From NCBI GenBank assembly GCA_964515005.1, contig CAZEVT010000004.1, positions 4,302 to 68,301 of the forward strand: a stretch of 64,000 nt of DNA. Direction: 5' to 3'. The notes below the pieces were generated by a model. That model searched no databases. It saw nothing but the letters and a program-made list of their open reading frames with translations, and was not told the DNA's origin. The position numbers were made by a program, and so were the translations under genes. The DNA is from an uncultured Gammaproteobacteria bacterium (GTDB lineage Bacteria > Patescibacteriota > Microgenomatia > UBA10105 > UBA927). Below, one piece after another: positions 3,367 to 10,816 of the stretch (within the stretch, counting starts at the first letter, position 1; each line of letters starts with the position of its first letter).

Positions 3367-4050
3367 ATGATCAAAGTTTTGCCTAAAGGTGCCGGTCATA
3401 GAAAACGATTAAGAGATAGATTTCTACAATCGGGCTTAGATGGATTTCTAGATTATGAAGTGATCGAATTGCTTTTAACTTTGGGAACACCCAGACGGGA
3501 TTGTAAGCAGATGGCGAAAGATGTGGTTAAAAAATTTAATGGGTTACGCGGCGCTCTTGATGCCTCAATTGAAGAATTACAAAATATTAGTGGAATAGGT
3601 CCGTATAATGCATTTGGCCTAAAACTCTTTCAGGAAATGTCTGCGCGTCTGGCAAGGGAGCAAATACCAGAAAAGATTACGCTCGATTCTTCAAAAGCTG
3701 TTGCGAATTATTTACAAAAATCTATAGGTTCAAAAAAGAAAGAATATTTTATTATGTTATCTTTAGACGCACGAAATAACTTAATAAAGATTAGTAATAT
3801 TTCAGTTGGTTCGCTTAACGCAAGCATTGTGCACCCAAGGGAGATTTTTAAAGAGGCAATTCAATCTTCTGCTGCGCACATATTAATAGCGCACAATCAT
3901 CCATCGGGTGACCCTGAAGCTTCGCCGGAAGATGTTGCCTTAACGCGACGATTGGGGGAAGCCGCAAAGATTTTTGACATAGATTTACTTGATCATGTTA
4001 TAGTTACAAGAGACAATTTTTTTAGCTTAAAGGAGCAAAATTTAATTTAA
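3367..4050 (+). CDS. radC: RadC-like JAB-domain protein (UPF0758)
   Basis: HNHPSGDPEASPEDVALTRRL JAMM/JAB motif and overall RadC length; first gene of the AT-rich island. Confidence 0.85.
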   Translation: MIKVLPKGAGHRKRLRDRFLQSGLDGFLDYEVIELLLTLGTPRRDCKQMAKDVVKKFNGLRGALDASIEELQNISGIGPYNAFGLKLFQEMSARLAREQIPEKITLDSSKAVANYLQKSIGSKKKEYFIMLSLDARNNLIKISNISVGSLNASIVHPREIFKEAIQSSAAHILIAHNHPSGDPEASPEDVALTRRLGEAAKIFDIDLLDHVIVTRDNFFSLKEQNLI

Positions 4051-4054
4051 ATAA

Positions 4055-4402
4055 ATGTCTGGTATAAAAAAACTTACAGAAAAAATTAAGAAATTTCGAG
4101 ATGAGCGAGATTGGAAACAATTTCATAACCCGAAAGATATGTCCCTTTCGCTAGTTTTGGAGGCGGCAGAGGTAATGGAGCATTTCCAATGGATGAGTTC
4201 AGAAGAAATGATAGTTTATACAAAAAGTAATAAGCATGAAATTGGTGAAGAGTTGGCAGACGTATTATATTGGATTCTTCTCATAAGTCATGATTTAGAG
4301 ATTGATATTATAGATGCATTAGAAAAGAAGCTTATAATTCAAGAAAAAAAATATCCAATAGAAAAAGCTAAGGGGAAGCACACTAAATATAACAAGCTTT
4401 AA
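4055..4402 (+). CDS. MazG-like nucleotide pyrophosphohydrolase domain protein
   Basis: about 115 aa; LEAAEVMEHFQW and EELADVLYWIL helices characteristic of MazG/NTP-PPase all-alpha domains; 4 nt after radC. Confidence 0.7.
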   Translation: MSGIKKLTEKIKKFRDERDWKQFHNPKDMSLSLVLEAAEVMEHFQWMSSEEMIVYTKSNKHEIGEELADVLYWILLISHDLEIDIIDALEKKLIIQEKKYPIEKAKGKHTKYNKL

Positions 4403-4405
4403 ATT

Positions 4406-6265
4406 ATGATCCTTTACGATGCCTCTATAGAACATTTTAATGAAGACGTAATGCAAAATCGTATTGCAGATCGTGCAGCCGAAAAATATCACGCGTACTA
4501 TAAAAGACAACCGGGGGAGTCTGAATATCGTTCATGGGCAATGTCGTTGGCAATTTTAAACAATAGCTTCATCTATGCTGGACTTAAAGATAATCATATA
4601 GTAGTTGAATACGAGCTCCCATTCGCTTCACAAAGGATCGATGTGTTATTGTTTGGACATGATGTTGATGGAAAAGAAAATATAGTGATTATGGAGCTTA
4701 AACAGTGGTCAAATGACAATGTTAAGGATTCAATTTCAGAGGGAAATATAATCGTTAATTATGGAAAATTCAAAAAAGAACAACCCCATCCGGCTTTGCA
4801 GGTGCAGGGGTATTATTTCGGTTTGAAAGATTTTGTTCAAGTTTTTGATGAAACAAATGCTCCAGATTTGAGCGCGACTATCTATGCACATAATTATTCG
4901 AAATACAAAGATGCAACACTCTTTTCTCCTAAATATTCTGAATTAATAAAAACGTTCCCGATATTTACAAAAGAAGATGCTGTCGAACTCGGCAGGTATT
5001 TAAAAAAACGTCTCCAAAGTGGAAAGGGGCAGTTGGTTTATGAACACTTTGCAAGAAGTCCAATCGGCCCATCAAAAAAACTTCTTGATCACACGAGTGA
5101 AATGATTAATAAACAACAAATATTTAACTTAATTGATGATCAAATTGTAGCGTACAACGCCATCATGCACAAAGCAAAACAGTTAGCAAAAATAAAAAAG
5201 AAATCAGTAATAATCGTAAAAGGTGGTCCTGGCACAGGGAAGTCAGTCATCGCGCTCGAGGTTATGGGTGAGCTTTTAAGGCGGGGAAAAACGGTTATGC
5301 ACGCTACTGGTTCGTCCGCGTTTACAAACACACTTAGAAAAATTGTTGGCGTTCGCGCACGAACTCTCTTCAAGTTTTTTAATGGCTTTACAACAACCAA
5401 ACCAGATTCTCTTGATGTTCTTGTCTGTGATGAGGCACATCGTATTAGAGAGACTAGTGTGAACAGATACACTCCTAGAGATCAAAGAACAAATTTGCCT
5501 CAGATCGACGAATTATTAAGAATAGCAAAGCTAAATATTTTCTTTATCGATGAAAATCAAACAGTTCGCCCAAATGAAATCGGCAGTGTTGCAATCATTA
5601 AAGAAGCTGCCAGACGCTTTGAGATCGATGAGTCAGAAATAATTGAATTTGAATTAAAAACCCAGTTTCGTTGTTCTGGGTCGGATGCATATTTACAATG
5701 GATTGATAAAGTTTTAGATATTCAAGGTTCTGACATCGCACACTTTGATCCTAAAATGGAATTTCGTATTTTTGAGTCTCCGTCTGAAATGATGACGGAA
5801 ATTAGAGCTAGAAATCAAGAGAAGGGCAATTCTGCAAGAATAGTTGCTGGGTTTTGCTGGCCATGGAGTAATCCAAATAGTGACGGGTCCTTAGTAAGTG
5901 ATGTAAAGGTTGGTAATTTTGAAATGCCGTGGGAGAAAAAAAATGAGTTTTGGAAATGGGCAACTGACCCGAGTGGAATGGAACAAGTTGGAACAGTGTA
6001 TACGTCACAAGGTTTTGAGTTTGACTATATAGGCGTCATATTCGGTAACGATTTAGTGTATGACTTGAAAAAACAAAAATGGATTGTAAAACCAGAAAAT
6101 TCACACGACACAATGGTTACAAGAAACAATGAAGACCTAGATAGACATTTAAAAAATGTATACCGGGTACTTATGTCCAGAGCTCACAAAGGGGTTTATG
6201 TATATTTTGTGGATAAGGCAACTGAAGAGTACTTTAAAGCTAATCTTAAAGAAGAACAAAAATGA
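4406..6265 (+). CDS. DUF2075-family ATPase/helicase-like protein with an N-terminal PD-(D/E)xK-like nuclease domain (Schlafen-like architecture)
   Basis: N-terminal QRIDVLLFG...IVIMELKQW (D...ExK); Walker A GGPGTGKS; Walker B/DEAH-like LVCDEAHR; C-terminal TVYTSQGFEFDYIGVIFG typical of DUF2075/UvrD-like C-termini. Confidence 0.8.
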   Translation: MILYDASIEHFNEDVMQNRIADRAAEKYHAYYKRQPGESEYRSWAMSLAILNNSFIYAGLKDNHIVVEYELPFASQRIDVLLFGHDVDGKENIVIMELKQWSNDNVKDSISEGNIIVNYGKFKKEQPHPALQVQGYYFGLKDFVQVFDETNAPDLSATIYAHNYSKYKDATLFSPKYSELIKTFPIFTKEDAVELGRYLKKRLQSGKGQLVYEHFARSPIGPSKKLLDHTSEMINKQQIFNLIDDQIVAYNAIMHKAKQLAKIKKKSVIIVKGGPGTGKSVIALEVMGELLRRGKTVMHATGSSAFTNTLRKIVGVRARTLFKFFNGFTTTKPDSLDVLVCDEAHRIRETSVNRYTPRDQRTNLPQIDELLRIAKLNIFFIDENQTVRPNEIGSVAIIKEAARRFEIDESEIIEFELKTQFRCSGSDAYLQWIDKVLDIQGSDIAHFDPKMEFRIFESPSEMMTEIRARNQEKGNSARIVAGFCWPWSNPNSDGSLVSDVKVGNFEMPWEKKNEFWKWATDPSGMEQVGTVYTSQGFEFDYIGVIFGNDLVYDLKKQKWIVKPENSHDTMVTRNNEDLDRHLKNVYRVLMSRAHKGVYVYFVDKATEEYFKANLKEEQK

Positions 6266-6963
6266 GACAAATACAAGATGACGTCCTTTCGTATAGGGAA
6301 ATGTGCGATGCGGAAAAGGTTCAAACGCTTCAGAGAGGAATGAATTTTCGCCTCAATTCGTCATATTCAGTTATTTTAATGTCCCAGAGATCAAATGCAC
6401 CTTATGCAGATAGGATACATTCTGATGGAGTAACCATTGAATATGAGGGACATGATGTATCGCGCCAGTCATACACCCACAATCCAAAGCTTGAAGATCA
6501 ATCGCATCAGCTACCCTCAGGCAAGCTCACGCAAAATGGTTTGTTTATTGATTCAATTAATAAATACAAAGAAAATAAATCGACACCCGAGCGCGTAAAG
6601 GCGTACGAAAAAATTATGAATGGTGTCTGGTCATTGAAGGGCTATTTTGATCTCATTGACTACAAAATAGTGAATGACGGCAAGCGCAACGTATTTCGAT
6701 TTATTTTACGACTCTCGGATAAACAATCCCCTGATACGAATATTCAGAACATGCAGCTTAGTCATACACGTCTTATTCCATCTGAGGTAAAAAAAGAAGT
6801 GTGGAAGAGAGATGAAGGTAAATGTGTCAAATGCGGATCTCGAGAAAATTTACATTTCGATCACGATTTGCCCTTTTCACGAGGTGGAACAAGTCTAACA
6901 GCGAAGAACGTACGACTATTATGTTTGAAACACAATTTAGAAAAATCAGCGAAAATTCAGTAG
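6262..6963 (+). CDS. HNH endonuclease with an uncharacterised ~170-aa N-terminal domain
   Basis: C-terminal CVKCGS...LHFDHDLPFSRGG...LLCLKHN HNH motif; ATGA overlap with the upstream ATPase gene. Confidence 0.8.
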   Translation: MRQIQDDVLSYREMCDAEKVQTLQRGMNFRLNSSYSVILMSQRSNAPYADRIHSDGVTIEYEGHDVSRQSYTHNPKLEDQSHQLPSGKLTQNGLFIDSINKYKENKSTPERVKAYEKIMNGVWSLKGYFDLIDYKIVNDGKRNVFRFILRLSDKQSPDTNIQNMQLSHTRLIPSEVKKEVWKRDEGKCVKCGSRENLHFDHDLPFSRGGTSLTAKNVRLLCLKHNLEKSAKIQ

Positions 6964-7204
6964 CATTTTCTTAAACGAATTTTACCCGACACCGGTGGGG
7001 AGGGTTGAGGTGGAGGGAATGGTAAGACATAGATGCCATCGGTACGCTCAGCACAACTGAATACTTAATAATCTTCAATGCTAGAACTCCAAGGTAAAAA
7101 ATTTATCTATCACATGATTGAGTATCTTTGATACTTTTTGATATAAAAAAGCTATATTGTTTTTTGGCAGTCTTTAGATCATACTGCTTAAGTAGCTCAA
7201 TTTT

Positions 7205-7495
7205 ATGCTTGATTATGATGATATGACTACCAAAGAATTAAAAGAAAAAGAAACAGTAAGAACAAATGATCTGCTTTTAGAACTCAACAATAGAGTAGGA
7301 GTAATGATTTCTCTGCTTTTACGGATGGTGCAACAAGACAAATCATCAATAAGCCTAAAAGATCAAATTCAAATTCTTAACAATCTAGGTTTACGCCCTC
7401 GTGACATTGCCGCTATCCTTGGTAAGACCCCTACTCACATCAGTAAAGAACTTGTTGGCATAAGAAAAACAAAAACAACAGCAACCGAGGAGTAA
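7205..7495 (+). CDS. small sigma70-region-4-like HTH protein, paralog 1 of a tandem array
   Basis: ILNNLGLRPRDIAAILGKTPTHISKELVGIRK resembles the sigma70_r4/LuxR-type HTH; start may instead be Met-7. Confidence 0.55.
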   Translation: MLDYDDMTTKELKEKETVRTNDLLLELNNRVGVMISLLLRMVQQDKSSISLKDQIQILNNLGLRPRDIAAILGKTPTHISKELVGIRKTKTTATEE

Positions 7496-7501
7496 TCGAC
7501 T

Positions 7502-7717
7502 ATGAGCGACCTGCAATTACTTGAACAAATATCTAACAAGCTGAGTGCATTAATTGCGCTTTCTCTACCAAGTGACGTAATAAAAATGTCTACAGCAGAC
7601 GGAGAGCGATTACTCAGACGATTCGACCTAAACAATCAAGCTATAGCAGACATTTTGGGAACTACAAAGAGAACAATTGAAGTGATGAAGAGTAGAGATC
7701 AAAAAAATAATAAATAA
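7502..7717 (+). CDS. small sigma70-region-4-like HTH protein, paralog 2
   Basis: ERLLRRFDLNNQAIADILGTTKRTIEVMKSR; 7 nt after paralog 1. Confidence 0.55.
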   Translation: MSDLQLLEQISNKLSALIALSLPSDVIKMSTADGERLLRRFDLNNQAIADILGTTKRTIEVMKSRDQKNNK

Positions 7718-7719
7718 AC

Positions 7720-7908
7720 ATGGAAGACACAAAGGAAATCGAAAAAACGCTTAATAATCTCAAAAAATCAATTGATACTTTGATTTTGCTTGAGCTTTGT
7801 AAACTCGGTGCCGGCGCAAAAGAAATTCGAAATATTTTAGGGGGTTTGGACAATAATCAATTTTCCGCTATAAATGCAGCTATCAAAGGAGGCAAACAAC
7901 ATGGATGA
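7720..7908 (+). CDS. small HTH-like protein, paralog 3
   Basis: LCKLGAGAKEIRNILG; 3 nt after paralog 2; same N-terminal amphipathic helix pattern. Confidence 0.5.
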   Translation: MEDTKEIEKTLNNLKKSIDTLILLELCKLGAGAKEIRNILGGLDNNQFSAINAAIKGGKQHG

Positions 7909-8080
7909 AAAAATTATCGGCATCCTAGAGGATATAAAAAAATTAGTAATTCTTGGTTTAATTACACGCGGTGTTCAGGGAAAAGACATAGCCCAGGTAA
8001 TCGGGGTAGATAAAAGCACGATCACGAGAATAGCCCCAGCACGAAAAATAAAAGTGAATAAAATAGATGAGCAGATATAA
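7901..8080 (+). CDS. small HTH-like protein, paralog 4
   Basis: LGLITRGVQGKDIAQVIGVDKSTITRIA. The ORF track opens at 7874, but ATG 7901 gives an 8-nt overlap with paralog 3 and is preferred. Confidence 0.5.
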   Translation: MDEKIIGILEDIKKLVILGLITRGVQGKDIAQVIGVDKSTITRIAPARKIKVNKIDEQI

Positions 8081-8477
8081 TCCCGATTTAATAAAAAAAA
8101 TAAGTCAAAAACTTAACAAAGCCCCGACCTATATTCGAGAGCAGATAAGCCGACGTGCATTACGACATAATATTTTATCAGAGGCAGAATTAGCCAATTG
8201 GGCAAGATCTTTAGGAATTTCTGCGGATTCATATATCCGCACATTATCGCCAAGTGTTCAAAGTCAAATTTTATCAACTCCCTCACCTGTTAAAAATTAT
8301 TTTTCTAAACCCTCAGTACTAAGGATTGTTCAACTTGGTAAAAAAGAAAATGAATGGTATAACCTTTGGTGGGTGCAGCTACTAATAGCCTTTTTTGTAG
8401 TAGGGATATTAGCAAGTACAATTTCTCAAATTTTAGGGGTATATTTTACAAATTCACTCGGTTTAACTAAACCATAA
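8067..8477 (+). CDS. membrane-anchored relative of the HTH array (N-terminal HTH-like segment plus C-terminal TM helix)
   Basis: SEAELANWARSLGISADSYIRTL followed by the hydrophobic WWVQLLIAFFVVGILASTISQILGVYF; overlaps paralog 4. Confidence 0.5.
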   Translation: MSRYNPDLIKKISQKLNKAPTYIREQISRRALRHNILSEAELANWARSLGISADSYIRTLSPSVQSQILSTPSPVKNYFSKPSVLRIVQLGKKENEWYNLWWVQLLIAFFVVGILASTISQILGVYFTNSLGLTKP

Positions 8478-8581
8478 GTCGCAGACATGCCTTGAAGCCT
8501 AAATTATTTCCCCACGGCGTGGATTGCCGGAGAAATGATTACACACCGGGTGTGAAATAGCTAGACACCTAATAAAAATTT

Positions 8582-8609
8582 ATGTATAAACTTTCTCCAT
8601 CAGATTTTG
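8582..8609 (+). repeat. 28-bp direct repeat, copy A (5' end of the nuclease gene)
   Basis: atgtataaactttctccatcagattttg matches 10253..10280 at 27 of 28 positions. Confidence 0.8.
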
Positions 8610-9229
8610 CTTATTTATACGAGGAGTGTAAGCATTGCTATTACCTGAAAATCCGTAAGGGCATTGGGCGGCCGAGCATGCCGTTCCCCGGAGTATTTGG
8701 CGCGATCAATACCAGATTGCAGGGGAATATGGTGGGGAAGGACTTGCGGGAGCTTTCGGATAAACTCCCCGAGGGGACCGTGGAGAGTCAGGAGGGGTAT
8801 GTGCAATCCGCCGTTATTGCCGGAACCACGGTATTTGTCAAAGGCAAGTATGATCTTCTGGTCAGACTCCCGGATGGCACGTACATGATAGTTGATCTCA
8901 AACTCAGTACTCCGAAAGATGAGAAGGTTGCCAAATATCAATCGCAACTATGGTCGTATGTATATGCCTTTGAACATCCTGCCGCGGGAGCACCAAAGAA
9001 GATAACGCGGGCGGGACTCCTGATTTTCTATCCCGATGCCGTTTCATTTGCCGGCGGCGTCGCTTCCCTTACGTTTCCGCCCACGTGGCTGGCGGTACCG
9101 GTGGACCGCGATGCATTTGCGAAGTTTATCGTAGGAGTGAACGATCTTTTGGAAGGCCCAACGCCGCCGGAGAATACGGATTGTAATTGGTGTAAATATA
9201 GACAAGCTGTTAAAGTGCTTGAAAACTGA
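8582..9229 (+). CDS. PD-(D/E)xK nuclease of the RecB/Cas4-like family with N- and C-terminal Cys pairs
   Basis: motifs KYDLLV, IVDLKLS (DxK) and QSQLWSYVYAF (QxxxY); CKHCYY near the N-terminus and CNWCKY near the C-terminus. Confidence 0.65.
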   Translation: MYKLSPSDFAYLYEECKHCYYLKIRKGIGRPSMPFPGVFGAINTRLQGNMVGKDLRELSDKLPEGTVESQEGYVQSAVIAGTTVFVKGKYDLLVRLPDGTYMIVDLKLSTPKDEKVAKYQSQLWSYVYAFEHPAAGAPKKITRAGLLIFYPDAVSFAGGVASLTFPPTWLAVPVDRDAFAKFIVGVNDLLEGPTPPENTDCNWCKYRQAVKVLEN

Positions 9230-9410: not shown

Positions 9411-10247
9411 ATGACCACCCGTGACATCGAAACGACGAAAATTGCCCTGTTCAAAGGGAAAAAGATAAGAAAAATTATTTATAACAACGACTGGTGGTTT
9501 TCGATTATTGACGTCATTGCAGCGCTTACGGGAAATGCTCGTCCGAGAAAATATTGGAGCGATCTAAAGAAGAAGCTTATTAAAGAAGGCTATTTTGAAG
9601 TGTCCGAAAAAATCGGACAGTTGAAATTGGAAGCTCCTGACGGGAAAAAGCGCGAAACTGACTGTGCAAACACAGAAACACTTTTCCGCATTGTCCAATC
9701 CATTCCCTCTCCGAAAGCAGAACCGTTTAAGCGCTGGCTGGCAAGAGTGGGGTATGAGCGAATCCAAGAAATAGAAGATCCGGAGCTTGCTACCAAGAGA
9801 ACGCGGATACTTTATAAACTGAAAGGATATCCAAATGATTGGATTGAAAAACGCATGCGCGGGATAGCGATTCGCGAAGAATTGACCGATGAATGGCAAA
9901 AACGAGGAGCAAGACATCAAAAAGAATATGAAATTCTTACCGCTGAGATTTCCAAAGCGACGTTCGGCGTTACTCCGAGTGGTTATAAAAAGCTGAAAGG
10001 TTTGAAGCGGGAGAATCTGCGCGATCATATGGATGATTTTGAGCTAATTTTTACCATGCTTGGTGAGCGATCAACGACGGAAATTCACCGTACAGAAGAT
10101 TCGAGGGGTGTGCCAAAACTAAAAGCAGATGCTAGAGCCGGTGGTGATATAGCCGGCGGAGCAAGAAAAAAGTTGGAAAAACGCTTAGCTCGTTCGATTG
10201 TTTCAAAAAATAATTATTTACCAAAGAGAAGAAAATCGTTAAAGTAA
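9411..10247 (+). CDS. Bro-N domain protein (phage antirepressor-like)
   Basis: IRKIIYNNDWWFSIIDVIAALTGNARPRKYWSDL and SPKAEPFKRWLARVGYERIQ match Bro-N signatures; TATAAT at 9399-9404. Confidence 0.75.
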   Translation: MTTRDIETTKIALFKGKKIRKIIYNNDWWFSIIDVIAALTGNARPRKYWSDLKKKLIKEGYFEVSEKIGQLKLEAPDGKKRETDCANTETLFRIVQSIPSPKAEPFKRWLARVGYERIQEIEDPELATKRTRILYKLKGYPNDWIEKRMRGIAIREELTDEWQKRGARHQKEYEILTAEISKATFGVTPSGYKKLKGLKRENLRDHMDDFELIFTMLGERSTTEIHRTEDSRGVPKLKADARAGGDIAGGARKKLEKRLARSIVSKNNYLPKRRKSLK

Positions 10248-10252
10248 TCTCT

Positions 10253-10280
10253 ATGTACAAACTTTCTCCATCAGATTTTG
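10253..10280 (+). repeat. 28-bp direct repeat, copy B
   Basis: atgtacaaactttctccatcagattttg; opens a 54-codon orphan ORF (MYKLSPSDFVSSGSG...) that lies antisense to the 10271..10816 gene. Confidence 0.8.
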
Positions 10281-10816
10281 TCAGTTCCGGGAGTGGGTTC
10301 CGGGGGGAGATTTTCTTCTCCGCTTGGGGCGGCTGCGCCGTAGTCACCGGGCTTGAGCCATTCGACATACGTGCAGCCGGTGGCCTGCCGCTTGGCCGCA
10401 TCCCAACCGCTGGTTGAACATTTTTTCATCTTCTTGCCCGTGGCCGTCGTGTACAGGACGAGCTTCTTGCCGCATTCCGGGCAATCTTCGTTGAGCTCTT
10501 CGGTCGTGCCGTTTATCCATTCGATATAGTCACACCCTTCGGCCTTCTTGGTGTCTTTGTTCCAGACGTTGGTCGAACATTTCTTCATCTTCTTTCCAAA
10601 CCGGGTGACTGCAAAAACAAGAGGCGAGCCGCATGTGGGACATTTCTCGTTCAAGGTTTTGGGCTCGGGCATGATCCATTTCACATAATCACAGCCTTCG
10701 TTTTTCTTCGTGTCTTTGTTCCAGGAGCCGGTAGAACAGCGCTGAAGCTGACGGCCGGATTTGGTTTCGACAACTTCTCCCAGAGGGGAACCACATTTGG
10801 GACACATATCTGCCAT
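10271..10816 (-). CDS. triple topoisomerase-type C4 zinc-ribbon protein
   Basis: three tandem repeats of CPxCGSPL...GKKMKKCST..WNKDTKK.EGCDY.EW resembling zf-C4_Topoisom. Confidence 0.7.
   Translation of the reverse strand: MADMCPKCGSPLGEVVETKSGRQLQRCSTGSWNKDTKKNEGCDYVKWIMPEPKTLNEKCPTCGSPLVFAVTRFGKKMKKCSTNVWNKDTKKAEGCDYIEWINGTTEELNEDCPECGKKLVLYTTATGKKMKKCSTSGWDAAKRQATGCTYVEWLKPGDYGAAAPSGEENLPPEPTPGTDKI

Follow-up and report, generated by a model that had tools for sequence, protein, structure and literature searches.

A tandem array of small helix-turn-helix genes with a variable terminal gene as a candidate conflict cassette in Patescibacteria and other phyla

A 64,000-nucleotide (nt) stretch of contig CAZEVT010000004.1 (NCBI GenBank assembly GCA_964515005.1, positions 4,302 to 68,301 of the forward strand; this whole stretch is referred to here as the window), deposited as an uncultured Gammaproteobacteria bacterium and placed by GTDB in the Patescibacteriota (Microgenomatia; UBA10105; UBA927), carries at positions 7180 to 8477 a compact cassette in which four small helix-turn-helix (HTH)-type genes, here called mini-HTH genes, are followed by a terminal gene encoding a membrane-anchored protein. 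We consider, with moderate confidence, that the cassette is one autonomous, horizontally mobile conflict operon of the toxin-antitoxin (TA) or abortive-infection (Abi) type, previously undescribed. This reading is based on a constant multi-HTH module, its coupling into the terminal gene, the interchangeable toxic-type domains of that gene, and a patchy spread across phyla beside TA and defense genes. The initial annotation of this region had noted five consecutive + strand open reading frames (ORFs); all five lie where it had placed them and are tightly coupled, and every peptide segment that it quoted is present in the translations. The features of the cassette are as follows.

7180-7185, + strand: putative -10 element CATACT, the cassette's own promoter.
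7192-7200, + strand: conserved putative leader/operator motif (G)TAGCTCAA, i.e., GTAGCTCAA.
7205-7495, + strand: ORF1, 96 amino acids (aa) as the longest ORF and probably 90 aa from ATG 7223; subfamily 1a, the founder, always first in the array; long N-terminal helix, three-helix HTH, and basic tail.
7502-7717, + strand: ORF2, 71 aa; subfamily 1b, a paralog of ORF1, with a GAGGAG ribosome-binding site upstream.
7720-7908, + strand: ORF3, 62 aa; subfamily 0f, a minimal three-helix HTH-like protein.
7885-7892: AAAGGAGG, the ribosome-binding site of ORF4, 8 nt before ATG 7901.
7901-8080, + strand: ORF4, 59 aa (68 aa as the longest ORF, from 7874); subfamily 0c, a minimal HTH protein.
8067-8477, + strand: ORF5, 136 aa; the terminal gene, with a helical N-domain, a linker, and a single transmembrane (TM) helix.

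From ORF1 to ORF5, successive genes are separated by 6 nt and 2 nt and then overlap by 8 nt and 14 nt. Overlapping or nearly abutting genes imply co-translation of the array, and because the genes overlap the cassette is probably also cotranscribed. ATG 7223 (90 aa) is the most likely start of ORF1, since residue M7 is nearly invariant across 25 homologs. For ORF4 the most likely start is ATG 7901 (59 aa), because AAAGGAGG lies upstream of it and a 59-aa protein was also called independently on identical contigs.

Related loci were collected by scanning 185,579 species genomes with an ORF1 profile, which returned 24 loci, and by exact-protein look-ups, which brought the total to about 30 (designated here by L numbers). 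The scan loci belong to Patescibacteria (Parcubacteria, Portnoybacteria, Saccharibacteria, and Minisyncoccia), Alphaproteobacteria (Rhizomicrobium, Afipia, Stellaceae, and Hyphomicrobiales), Acidobacteriota, Phycisphaerales (Planctomycetota), Steroidobacteraceae, and others. Locus GC content ranges from 32% to 63%, and the cassettes have therefore adapted to their hosts. When 160 proteins from chains of tightly spaced + strand ORFs in 28 of the loci were clustered by BLASTP single linkage, the small array proteins fell into two superfamilies: family 1, comprising ORF1-like (1a) and ORF2-like (1b) proteins of roughly 70 to 100 aa, and family 0, comprising ORF3-like (0f) and ORF4-like (0c) proteins together with subfamilies 0a, 0b, 0d, and 0e (52 to 82 aa). 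Across the roughly 30 loci and several phyla, the cassette consists of three to six mini-HTH genes in conserved order plus one terminal gene; in nearly every complete locus, 1a comes first and is followed by two to five more mini-HTH genes and then by one larger terminal gene. Type I arrays run 1a-[0d]-1b-[0x]-0c-terminal, with 0c usually the last mini-HTH gene (the window has 1a-1b-0f-0c), and type II arrays run 1a-0a-0b-1a'-terminal. Exactly two members of the long-helix family 1 accompany one to four members of family 0 in 20 of the 23 complete arrays. The cassette is about 1.3 kb long in the window and 1.4 to 2.9 kb long in its relatives.

The flanks of the loci are unrelated (examples are Lon/PAP2/DAGK, Fur/ZnuABC, GMP synthase/IMPDH, AbiEi/AbiEii, and MazE-Fic with LexA-methyltransferase [MTase] and HNH). 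Defense or TA genes lie near several of them, namely AbiEi/AbiEii, MazE-Fic, LexA-MTase with HNH, type II MTases, a RiboL-PSP-type HEPN domain that scored just below the cutoff, and, in the window, the DUF2075-HNH set. Within the arrays, a comparison of the window (7223 to 8477) with L035 (1788 to 3004) showed that ORF3, ORF4, and ORF5 are 87%, 74%, and 52% identical, respectively, whereas ORF1 and ORF2 are only 33% and 24% identical. This mosaicism implies that recombination exchanges the front and back halves of arrays; mosaic arrays are typical of fast-shuffling conflict loci.

The terminal gene varies while the array stays constant. An ORF5-type N-domain of about 75 aa (alignment A5) is fused to several different C-terminal parts. 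It is joined to a TM helix in the window, in L035, and in 13 further homologs. In L019 and L021, which were scanned, it precedes the HEPN family domain Hypoth_Ymh (E values of 8e-19 and 1.6e-14, above the cutoff), and alignment places the terminal genes of L022, L025, and L027 in the same type. A Swt1-like HEPN domain follows it in L013, L014, and L024 (scanned; E 4e-13 to 6e-10, above the cutoff) and, by homology, in L040. The 191-aa terminal gene of L003 ends in a C terminus resembling PADLOC PDC-M14B (E 7e-7), a type to which L011 and L018 belong by homology, and a 239-aa form in L023 and L026 is unclassified. Other terminal genes lack the ORF5-type N-domain and carry a winged HTH (wHTH) instead: wHTH plus Swt1-like HEPN in L012, L015, and L037, and a 288-aa wHTH family in L009, L010, L015, L016, and L017 that has a conserved acidic/lysine motif and invariant DWGGE..D and A.A.K residues. 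RNases of the HEPN type are established toxins in both TA and Abi systems. The terminal gene is thus best described, from these domain comparisons, as a swappable and probably toxic effector.

The 288-aa family (alignment A6) matched no database entry, and the best hit of its PDB profile search was uridylate kinase (E 0.089). An assignment to Mrr-like nucleases was considered from the motif 'DWGGE..D...AFKG', seen by eye in A6, and was dropped for want of profile support, so that the family was left unassigned. In L037, a 174-aa gene (7709 to 8233) directly follows the wHTH-Swt1-HEPN terminal gene; its segment 'GEIDVIAY...IHIEAST' recalls, by eye, a PD-(D/E)XK nuclease, and it may be a second effector. 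In L025, a second, degenerate mini-cassette (9566 to 10540) lies directly after the first and consists of a 95-aa family 1 protein and a terminal gene of the 288-aa type broken into 159-aa and 57-aa pieces.

The initial annotation had allowed that the ORFs might lack homologs and coding signal or might be remnants of one degraded larger gene. Neither is the case. BLASTP returned 25 homologs of ORF1 (54 to 100% identity), whose alignment (A1) has 16 invariant columns, and 15 homologs of ORF5 (49 to 100% identity), nearly all of them full length at 132 to 140 aa. ORF2 has orthologs in L011 and L014 (61 to 68% identity), ORF3 has orthologs in L011, L024, L035, and L040, and ORF4 has orthologs in at least 11 loci. 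The ratio of nonsynonymous to synonymous substitution rates (dN/dS; Nei-Gojobori; orthologs in L011, L014, and L035) was 0.07 to 0.46 across the five genes (ORF1, 0.15 to 0.39; ORF3, 0.07 against L035; ORF4, 0.14 to 0.33), in comparisons in which dS is saturated; these values are well below 1 and show purifying selection on every one of the five. With a profile built from the ORF1 family, matches were obtained to 603 representative clusters (50% identity) at an E value of ≤1e-3 and 116 at ≤1e-10, and the best 150 of the 603 are all stand-alone proteins of 45 to 128 aa. Because the relatives of ORF1 are themselves small stand-alone proteins, and with each ORF kept separately and in different frames in many loci, pseudogene fragments of one larger gene are ruled out.

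The four mini-HTH proteins had been described as paralogs, and at the profile level this holds for ORF1 to ORF4. ORF1 and ORF2 share 32% identity over 53 aa (BLASTP). Probabilities from hhalign are 98.4% for 1a-1b and about 97% among 0a, 0b, 0c, and 0f (0a-0f, 97%) within the superfamilies, and 93% for 1a-0b and 88% for 1b-0c between them. Because this profile-profile comparison joins both superfamilies, ORF1 to ORF4 are, as judged from their sequence profiles, distant paralogs. The AlphaFold2 model of ORF1 (mean predicted local distance difference test [pLDDT] score, 77.5) has helices at residues 3 to 44, 51 to 60, 65 to 72, and 76 to 95, in agreement with the N-terminal helix and HTH that had been proposed for it. 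This three-helix model and the convergence of weak matches on HTH families place ORF1 in the tri-helical HTH superfamily (Pfam clan HTH).

The further suggestion that the proteins are of the sigma-70 region 4 or LuxR type was not borne out. Against Pfam models (Sigma70_r4_2, GerE, HTH_23, and HTH_38), the mini-HTH ORFs of the window scored 12 to 18 bits, compared with cutoffs of 22 to 27 bits. ORF2 had sub-threshold matches to Sigma70_r4_2 (14.0 bits; cutoff, 25.7), GerE (13.1 bits; cutoff, 23.5), and an Xre-like HTH, ORF4 had one to HTH_23 (E 0.0026), and ORF1, ORF3, and ORF4 gave no match to sigma-70 region 4 at E ≤1. Among 110 family members, the most frequent Pfam matches were nearly all to HTH families, all weak: HTH_23 (27 members), Sigma70_r4_2 (13 members at E ≤0.01, the best 4.8e-6), HTH_Crp_2 (13), GerE (7), HTH_38 (4), and others. 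HTH_23 is of the homeodomain-like, transposase or resolvase type. Weak matches to SigX were obtained for ORF4 from NCBIfam, and weak PHROG and PDB matches included repressors, CII-like proteins, and small terminases. Scans of ORF1 to ORF4 with Pfam, PHROGs, NCBIfam, and PADLOC thus yielded only sub-threshold and mutually inconsistent HTH matches, and no Pfam domain is recorded for any homolog of ORF1 or ORF5. Foldseek searches with the ORF1 model returned generic HTH proteins (MarR, KorB, Spo0J, PhyR sigma-like domains, phage HTH proteins, and sigma factors), none of them significant (E ≥0.58 in PDB and ≥0.12 in BFVD), and a PDB profile search with the ORF1 family (A1) found nothing significant, the best hit being a small-terminase HTH (E 0.15). 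The profile searches that had been proposed (Sigma70_r4, LuxR, and HTH_23) therefore upheld the HTH type and, all being sub-threshold, gave no family identity. ORF1 to ORF4 are HTH proteins without a family, and likeness to sigma region 4 is one of several equally weak resemblances. The array was rightly called unusual: tandem stand-alone mini-HTH paralogs precede a membrane-anchored fifth protein, with no family assignment for any of them.

ORF5 differs from the other four. It consists of a conserved N-domain at about residues 1 to 72, a disordered linker (73 to 93), and a TM helix at about 101 to 123. Its AlphaFold2 model (mean pLDDT, 75) has a five-helix N-domain (6 to 69; pLDDT about 90) and a long helix at 86 to 130. 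The Kyte-Doolittle maximum over 19 residues is 2.35 at residues 105 to 123, compared with ≤1.38 in the other four proteins, and 14 homologs retain the segment, with invariant residues G91, K92, Y98, N99, W102, Q104, and G113. Hydropathy, the modeled helix, and conservation all support the TM helix that had been proposed. ORF5 had been thought to carry a segment similar to one in the other four proteins; in hhalign comparisons its N-domain reached a probability of ≤10% against every mini-HTH subfamily, so that no relationship to them was detected and the idea of a fifth paralog was rejected. ORF5 matched nothing in Pfam, PHROGs, NCBIfam, or PADLOC; its N-domain profile (A5) gave no significant PDB hit, the best being the archaeal Rpa1 N-terminal domain (E 0.19); and its model had no significant fold match in a Foldseek search of PDB, where no hit had an E value below 0.1, the matches of the N-domain to GerE and VqmA having E values above 2. 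A search of a 5.8-billion-protein set with the N-domain profile yielded no more than 10 proteins, all of them short, and added nothing to the list of effectors.

The cassette also appears to have its own control region. The motif GTAGCTYAA (TAG[CT]TNAA) lies 5 to 12 nt after a -10-like hexamer and 30 to 70 nt upstream of the first gene in eight type I loci (the window, L003, L010, and L012 to L016), in several of which TTGACA-N17 precedes the hexamer; the chance expectation of the motif is 0.015 per locus. The motif may serve as an operator, mark the context of a transcription start, or act as a 5' RNA element. This conserved promoter and leader, together with the 240-nt gap that separates ORF1 from the HNH gene upstream, suggest that the array is transcribed as a unit of its own. 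Nothing meaningful emerged when positions 6500 to 9000 were scanned with Rfam and for promoters and terminators.

We propose the following scheme for a conflict operon of this kind. The four translationally coupled mini-HTH paralogs, two with long helices (ORF1 and ORF2) and two minimal (ORF3 and ORF4), would be made together, and their hydrophobic N-terminal helices may assemble them into a hetero-oligomeric DNA-binding complex. This complex might occupy the promoter and leader of the cassette itself, perhaps along with DNA elsewhere, and hold the last gene in check. If the complex were disturbed, as when the host is infected or the cassette is lost, the effector would be released; in the case of ORF5, the effector is predicted to damage or depolarize the membrane.

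Several points weigh against this proposal. The toxicity of ORF5 is suggested only by its TM helix and its position, and we infer, rather than observe, that the mini-HTH proteins bind DNA, bind one another, or neutralize the terminal protein. Terminal proteins with different N-terminal domains, ORF5-type or wHTH, follow the same array, and docking through the N-domain is therefore not required. We know of no TA system that needs three to six regulators, and four to seven for a single toxin would greatly exceed the number in any such system known to us. The arrays of L029, L033, and L034 have no recognizable terminal gene. Among 150 neighboring ORFs, PADLOC matched MTase_II 3 times, mad2 6 times, and mad8 3 times, which are raw counts with no background control and give weak context at most. 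The array proteins themselves had no convincing PADLOC match, that to PDC-M64B (E 1e-4) covering the HTH alone and occurring in 12 of 110 members.

The surroundings of the cassette in the window bear on some of the alternatives. The cassette lies in a low-GC island at approximately 3400 to 8500 (32 to 40% per 500-nt segment, mostly 35 to 39%, compared with about 45 to 60% in the flanks), together with the following genes.

3367-4050: RadC.
4055-4402: MazG-like gene.
4406-6265: DUF2075/SLFN-type helicase.
6262-6963: HNH gene.

The composition of the island suggests that several adjacent modules were acquired recently by horizontal transfer. The MazG-like, DUF2075 helicase, and HNH genes (4055 to 6963) abut or overlap (4402/4406 and 6262 to 6265), and the helicase matches PADLOC models of PDC-S41 (E 2.5e-21, partial), Nhi (1e-13), and AbiO (5e-12); these three genes form a candidate defense operon of their own. 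The window and L036 have an unbroken HNH gene (233 aa); in L001 (3072 to 3773), a JGI contig that otherwise matches the window, it is called as 124-aa and 97-aa pieces, which reflects a frameshift variant or an assembly error. Downstream of the cassette, a 29-nt direct repeat with one mismatch (8581 to 8609 and 10252 to 10280; none expected by chance) brackets a 1.67-kb segment with a PD-(D/E)XK/Cas4-like gene (8582 to 9229) and a Bro-N gene (9411 to 10247). The second repeat copy opens a truncated 'MYKLSPSDF...' ORF, and the repeat resembles a gene start that was duplicated when an insertion or recombination took place. Farther on, the - strand (10271 to 10816) carries a 181-aa ORF of three CxxC...C zinc-ribbon repeats; a similar protein in L010 has faint matches to Zn_ribbon_Top1.

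Among the alternatives, we give some, though limited, credence to the possibility that the cassette is a new class of immune system against phages or other mobile genetic elements, in which a diversified mini-HTH hetero-oligomer would act as a multispecificity sensor of DNA (or of RNA polymerase or anti-sigma factors) and directly license an interchangeable suicide effector. The effectors would be the HEPN RNases, the membrane-disrupting TM protein, or the nuclease-like proteins, and the array would sense rather than merely repress.

It seems improbable that the array is the regulatory or immunity module of an unrecognized small mobile element (a satellite, an integrative element, or a phage remnant) with repressor, Cro, excisionase-like, or small-terminase-like genes. 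The low-GC island suggests recent transfer, Bro-N belongs to an anti-repressor family and is flanked by the direct repeat, the weak matches to repressors, CII-like proteins, and small terminases point in the same direction, and in L037 and L038 a phage-type integrase is encoded 4 to 5 kb away from the array. However, searches of IMG/VR (2.9 million contigs), INPHARED phages, and PLSDB plasmids found no relative of the array, genes for an integrase, replication, or structural proteins show no consistent linkage to it, and the conserved boundaries enclose only the array and its terminal gene.

Somewhat more doubtful still is the idea that the genes encode small transcription factors of the ordinary kind, each independent of the others, which arose by tandem duplication and have no functional link with the terminal gene. 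The generic HTH fold would allow this, and tandem duplication is common, but the subfamilies keep the same order in different phyla, the array is consistently accompanied by a terminal gene whose HEPN, TM, or other domains are interchangeable, and translational coupling reaches that gene, by the 14-nt overlap in the window.

The initial annotation had linked the array to the neighboring nuclease/HNH operon and suggested a family of alternative or decoy DNA-binding modules controlling the island, whether the RadC-MazG-DUF2075-HNH genes or the PD-(D/E)XK gene. HTH proteins are usually regulators, and the array shares both its strand and the low-GC (35 to 38%) island with the DUF2075-HNH genes. 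A tblastn search with the RadC, MazG, DUF2075, HNH, PD-(D/E)XK, and Bro-N proteins of the window, however, had a single type of hit among the roughly 30 related loci, a distant HNH near the array of one distinct locus. The link to DUF2075/HNH genes is therefore not conserved in these loci, and the terminal gene is the only constant partner. With the 240-nt gap and the conserved promoter and leader before ORF1 as well, control of the island is very unlikely and is largely refuted by the absence of conserved linkage. We find least credible of all that the mini-HTH proteins mimic sigma factors or act in partner switching, binding RNA polymerase, anti-sigma factors, or phage anti-sigma proteins, with ORF5 as a membrane anti-sigma factor: the Sigma70_r4_2 and SigX matches and the PhyR and phage sigma factors among the Foldseek matches favor it, but the window ORFs are below the Pfam cutoffs, HTH_23 was matched twice as often as Sigma70_r4_2, no structural match was significant, the cassette has no region 2 partner, and HEPN RNases, which do not fit an anti-sigma role, occupy the position of ORF5 in relatives.

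If the conflict-operon reading is correct, the cassette represents an unannotated family whose founder gene comprises at least 603 clusters at 50% identity and which spans Patescibacteria (the candidate phyla radiation [CPR]), Proteobacteria, Acidobacteriota, and Planctomycetota. It would add a defense or TA architecture with a notable presence among CPR bacteria, a group with immune repertoires that are, to our knowledge, poorly known, and it would raise the question of why one effector needs several distinct HTH subunits. At about 1.3 kb, the cassette is short enough to be easily synthesized and tested.

Compared with known systems, the mini-HTH proteins share with sigma-70 region 4 and LuxR/GerE proteins a helix followed by an HTH and a basic C-terminal end, and a minority match these families weakly; they differ in being stand-alone proteins of 50 to 96 aa with sub-cutoff scores and no region 2, and in matching HTH_23 more frequently. 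ORF5 resembles membrane-tethered anti-sigma factors in having a cytoplasmic N-domain and a single TM helix and in following HTH genes. Unlike them, it matched no anti-sigma domain (e.g., zf-HC2/RskA), has almost no periplasmic part, and stands in a cassette without an extracytoplasmic function (ECF) sigma gene. The proposal that it is an anti-sigma factor or tethered regulator also fits poorly with relatives in which the orthologous N-domain, at the same gene position, is fused to cytoplasmic HEPN RNases. The PADLOC system PDC-M64 likewise has small proteins (B and C, 93 to 128 aa), which show a weak alignment to ORF1 in their HTH region (E 1.4e-4 to 3e-3); the ORF1 match spans only 35 to 40 residues (36 of a 123-position model at E 1.4e-4), ORF2 to ORF5 had no PDC-M64 match, and no other component of PDC-M64 or PDC-M14 was found. 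The likeness to PDC-M14 is confined to the PDC-M14B-like terminal C terminus of L003. A literature search (PDC-M64/M14, Ymh/TIGR02391, and CPR with HEPN and HTH) found no description of such arrays or of either PADLOC candidate in the library searched, and no Pfam, NCBIfam, PHROGs, or PADLOC model captures the cassette family.

The closest parallels lie with type II TA and Abi modules. As in HEPN-MNT, AbiE, and Xre-RES modules, small DNA-binding genes lie upstream of a toxic-domain gene and are translationally coupled to it, and the distribution is mobile, patchy, and beside other defense or TA genes. Cassette relatives share with HEPN-toxin modules an effector of the Ymh or Swt1-like HEPN type, above Pfam cutoffs, whereas the terminal gene of the window has only a TM helix and its product is a single-TM protein, not an enzyme. 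A constant N-terminal domain fused to alternative effector domains has been described for AbiJ-NTD1 to -5 and is a hallmark of such systems (PMC3710099). The N-domain of the cassette, fused to alternative effectors, follows the same pattern. Unlike type II TA systems, the cassette has three to six distinct HTH paralogs in place of one antitoxin. A further difference from TA and Abi modules is that neither Pfam nor PADLOC has a model matching its N-domain or its mini-HTH families. By analogy, then, the logic of the cassette resembles that of HTH-antitoxin/HEPN-toxin and Abi modules, from which its multi-paralog HTH array and unclassified N-domain set it apart.

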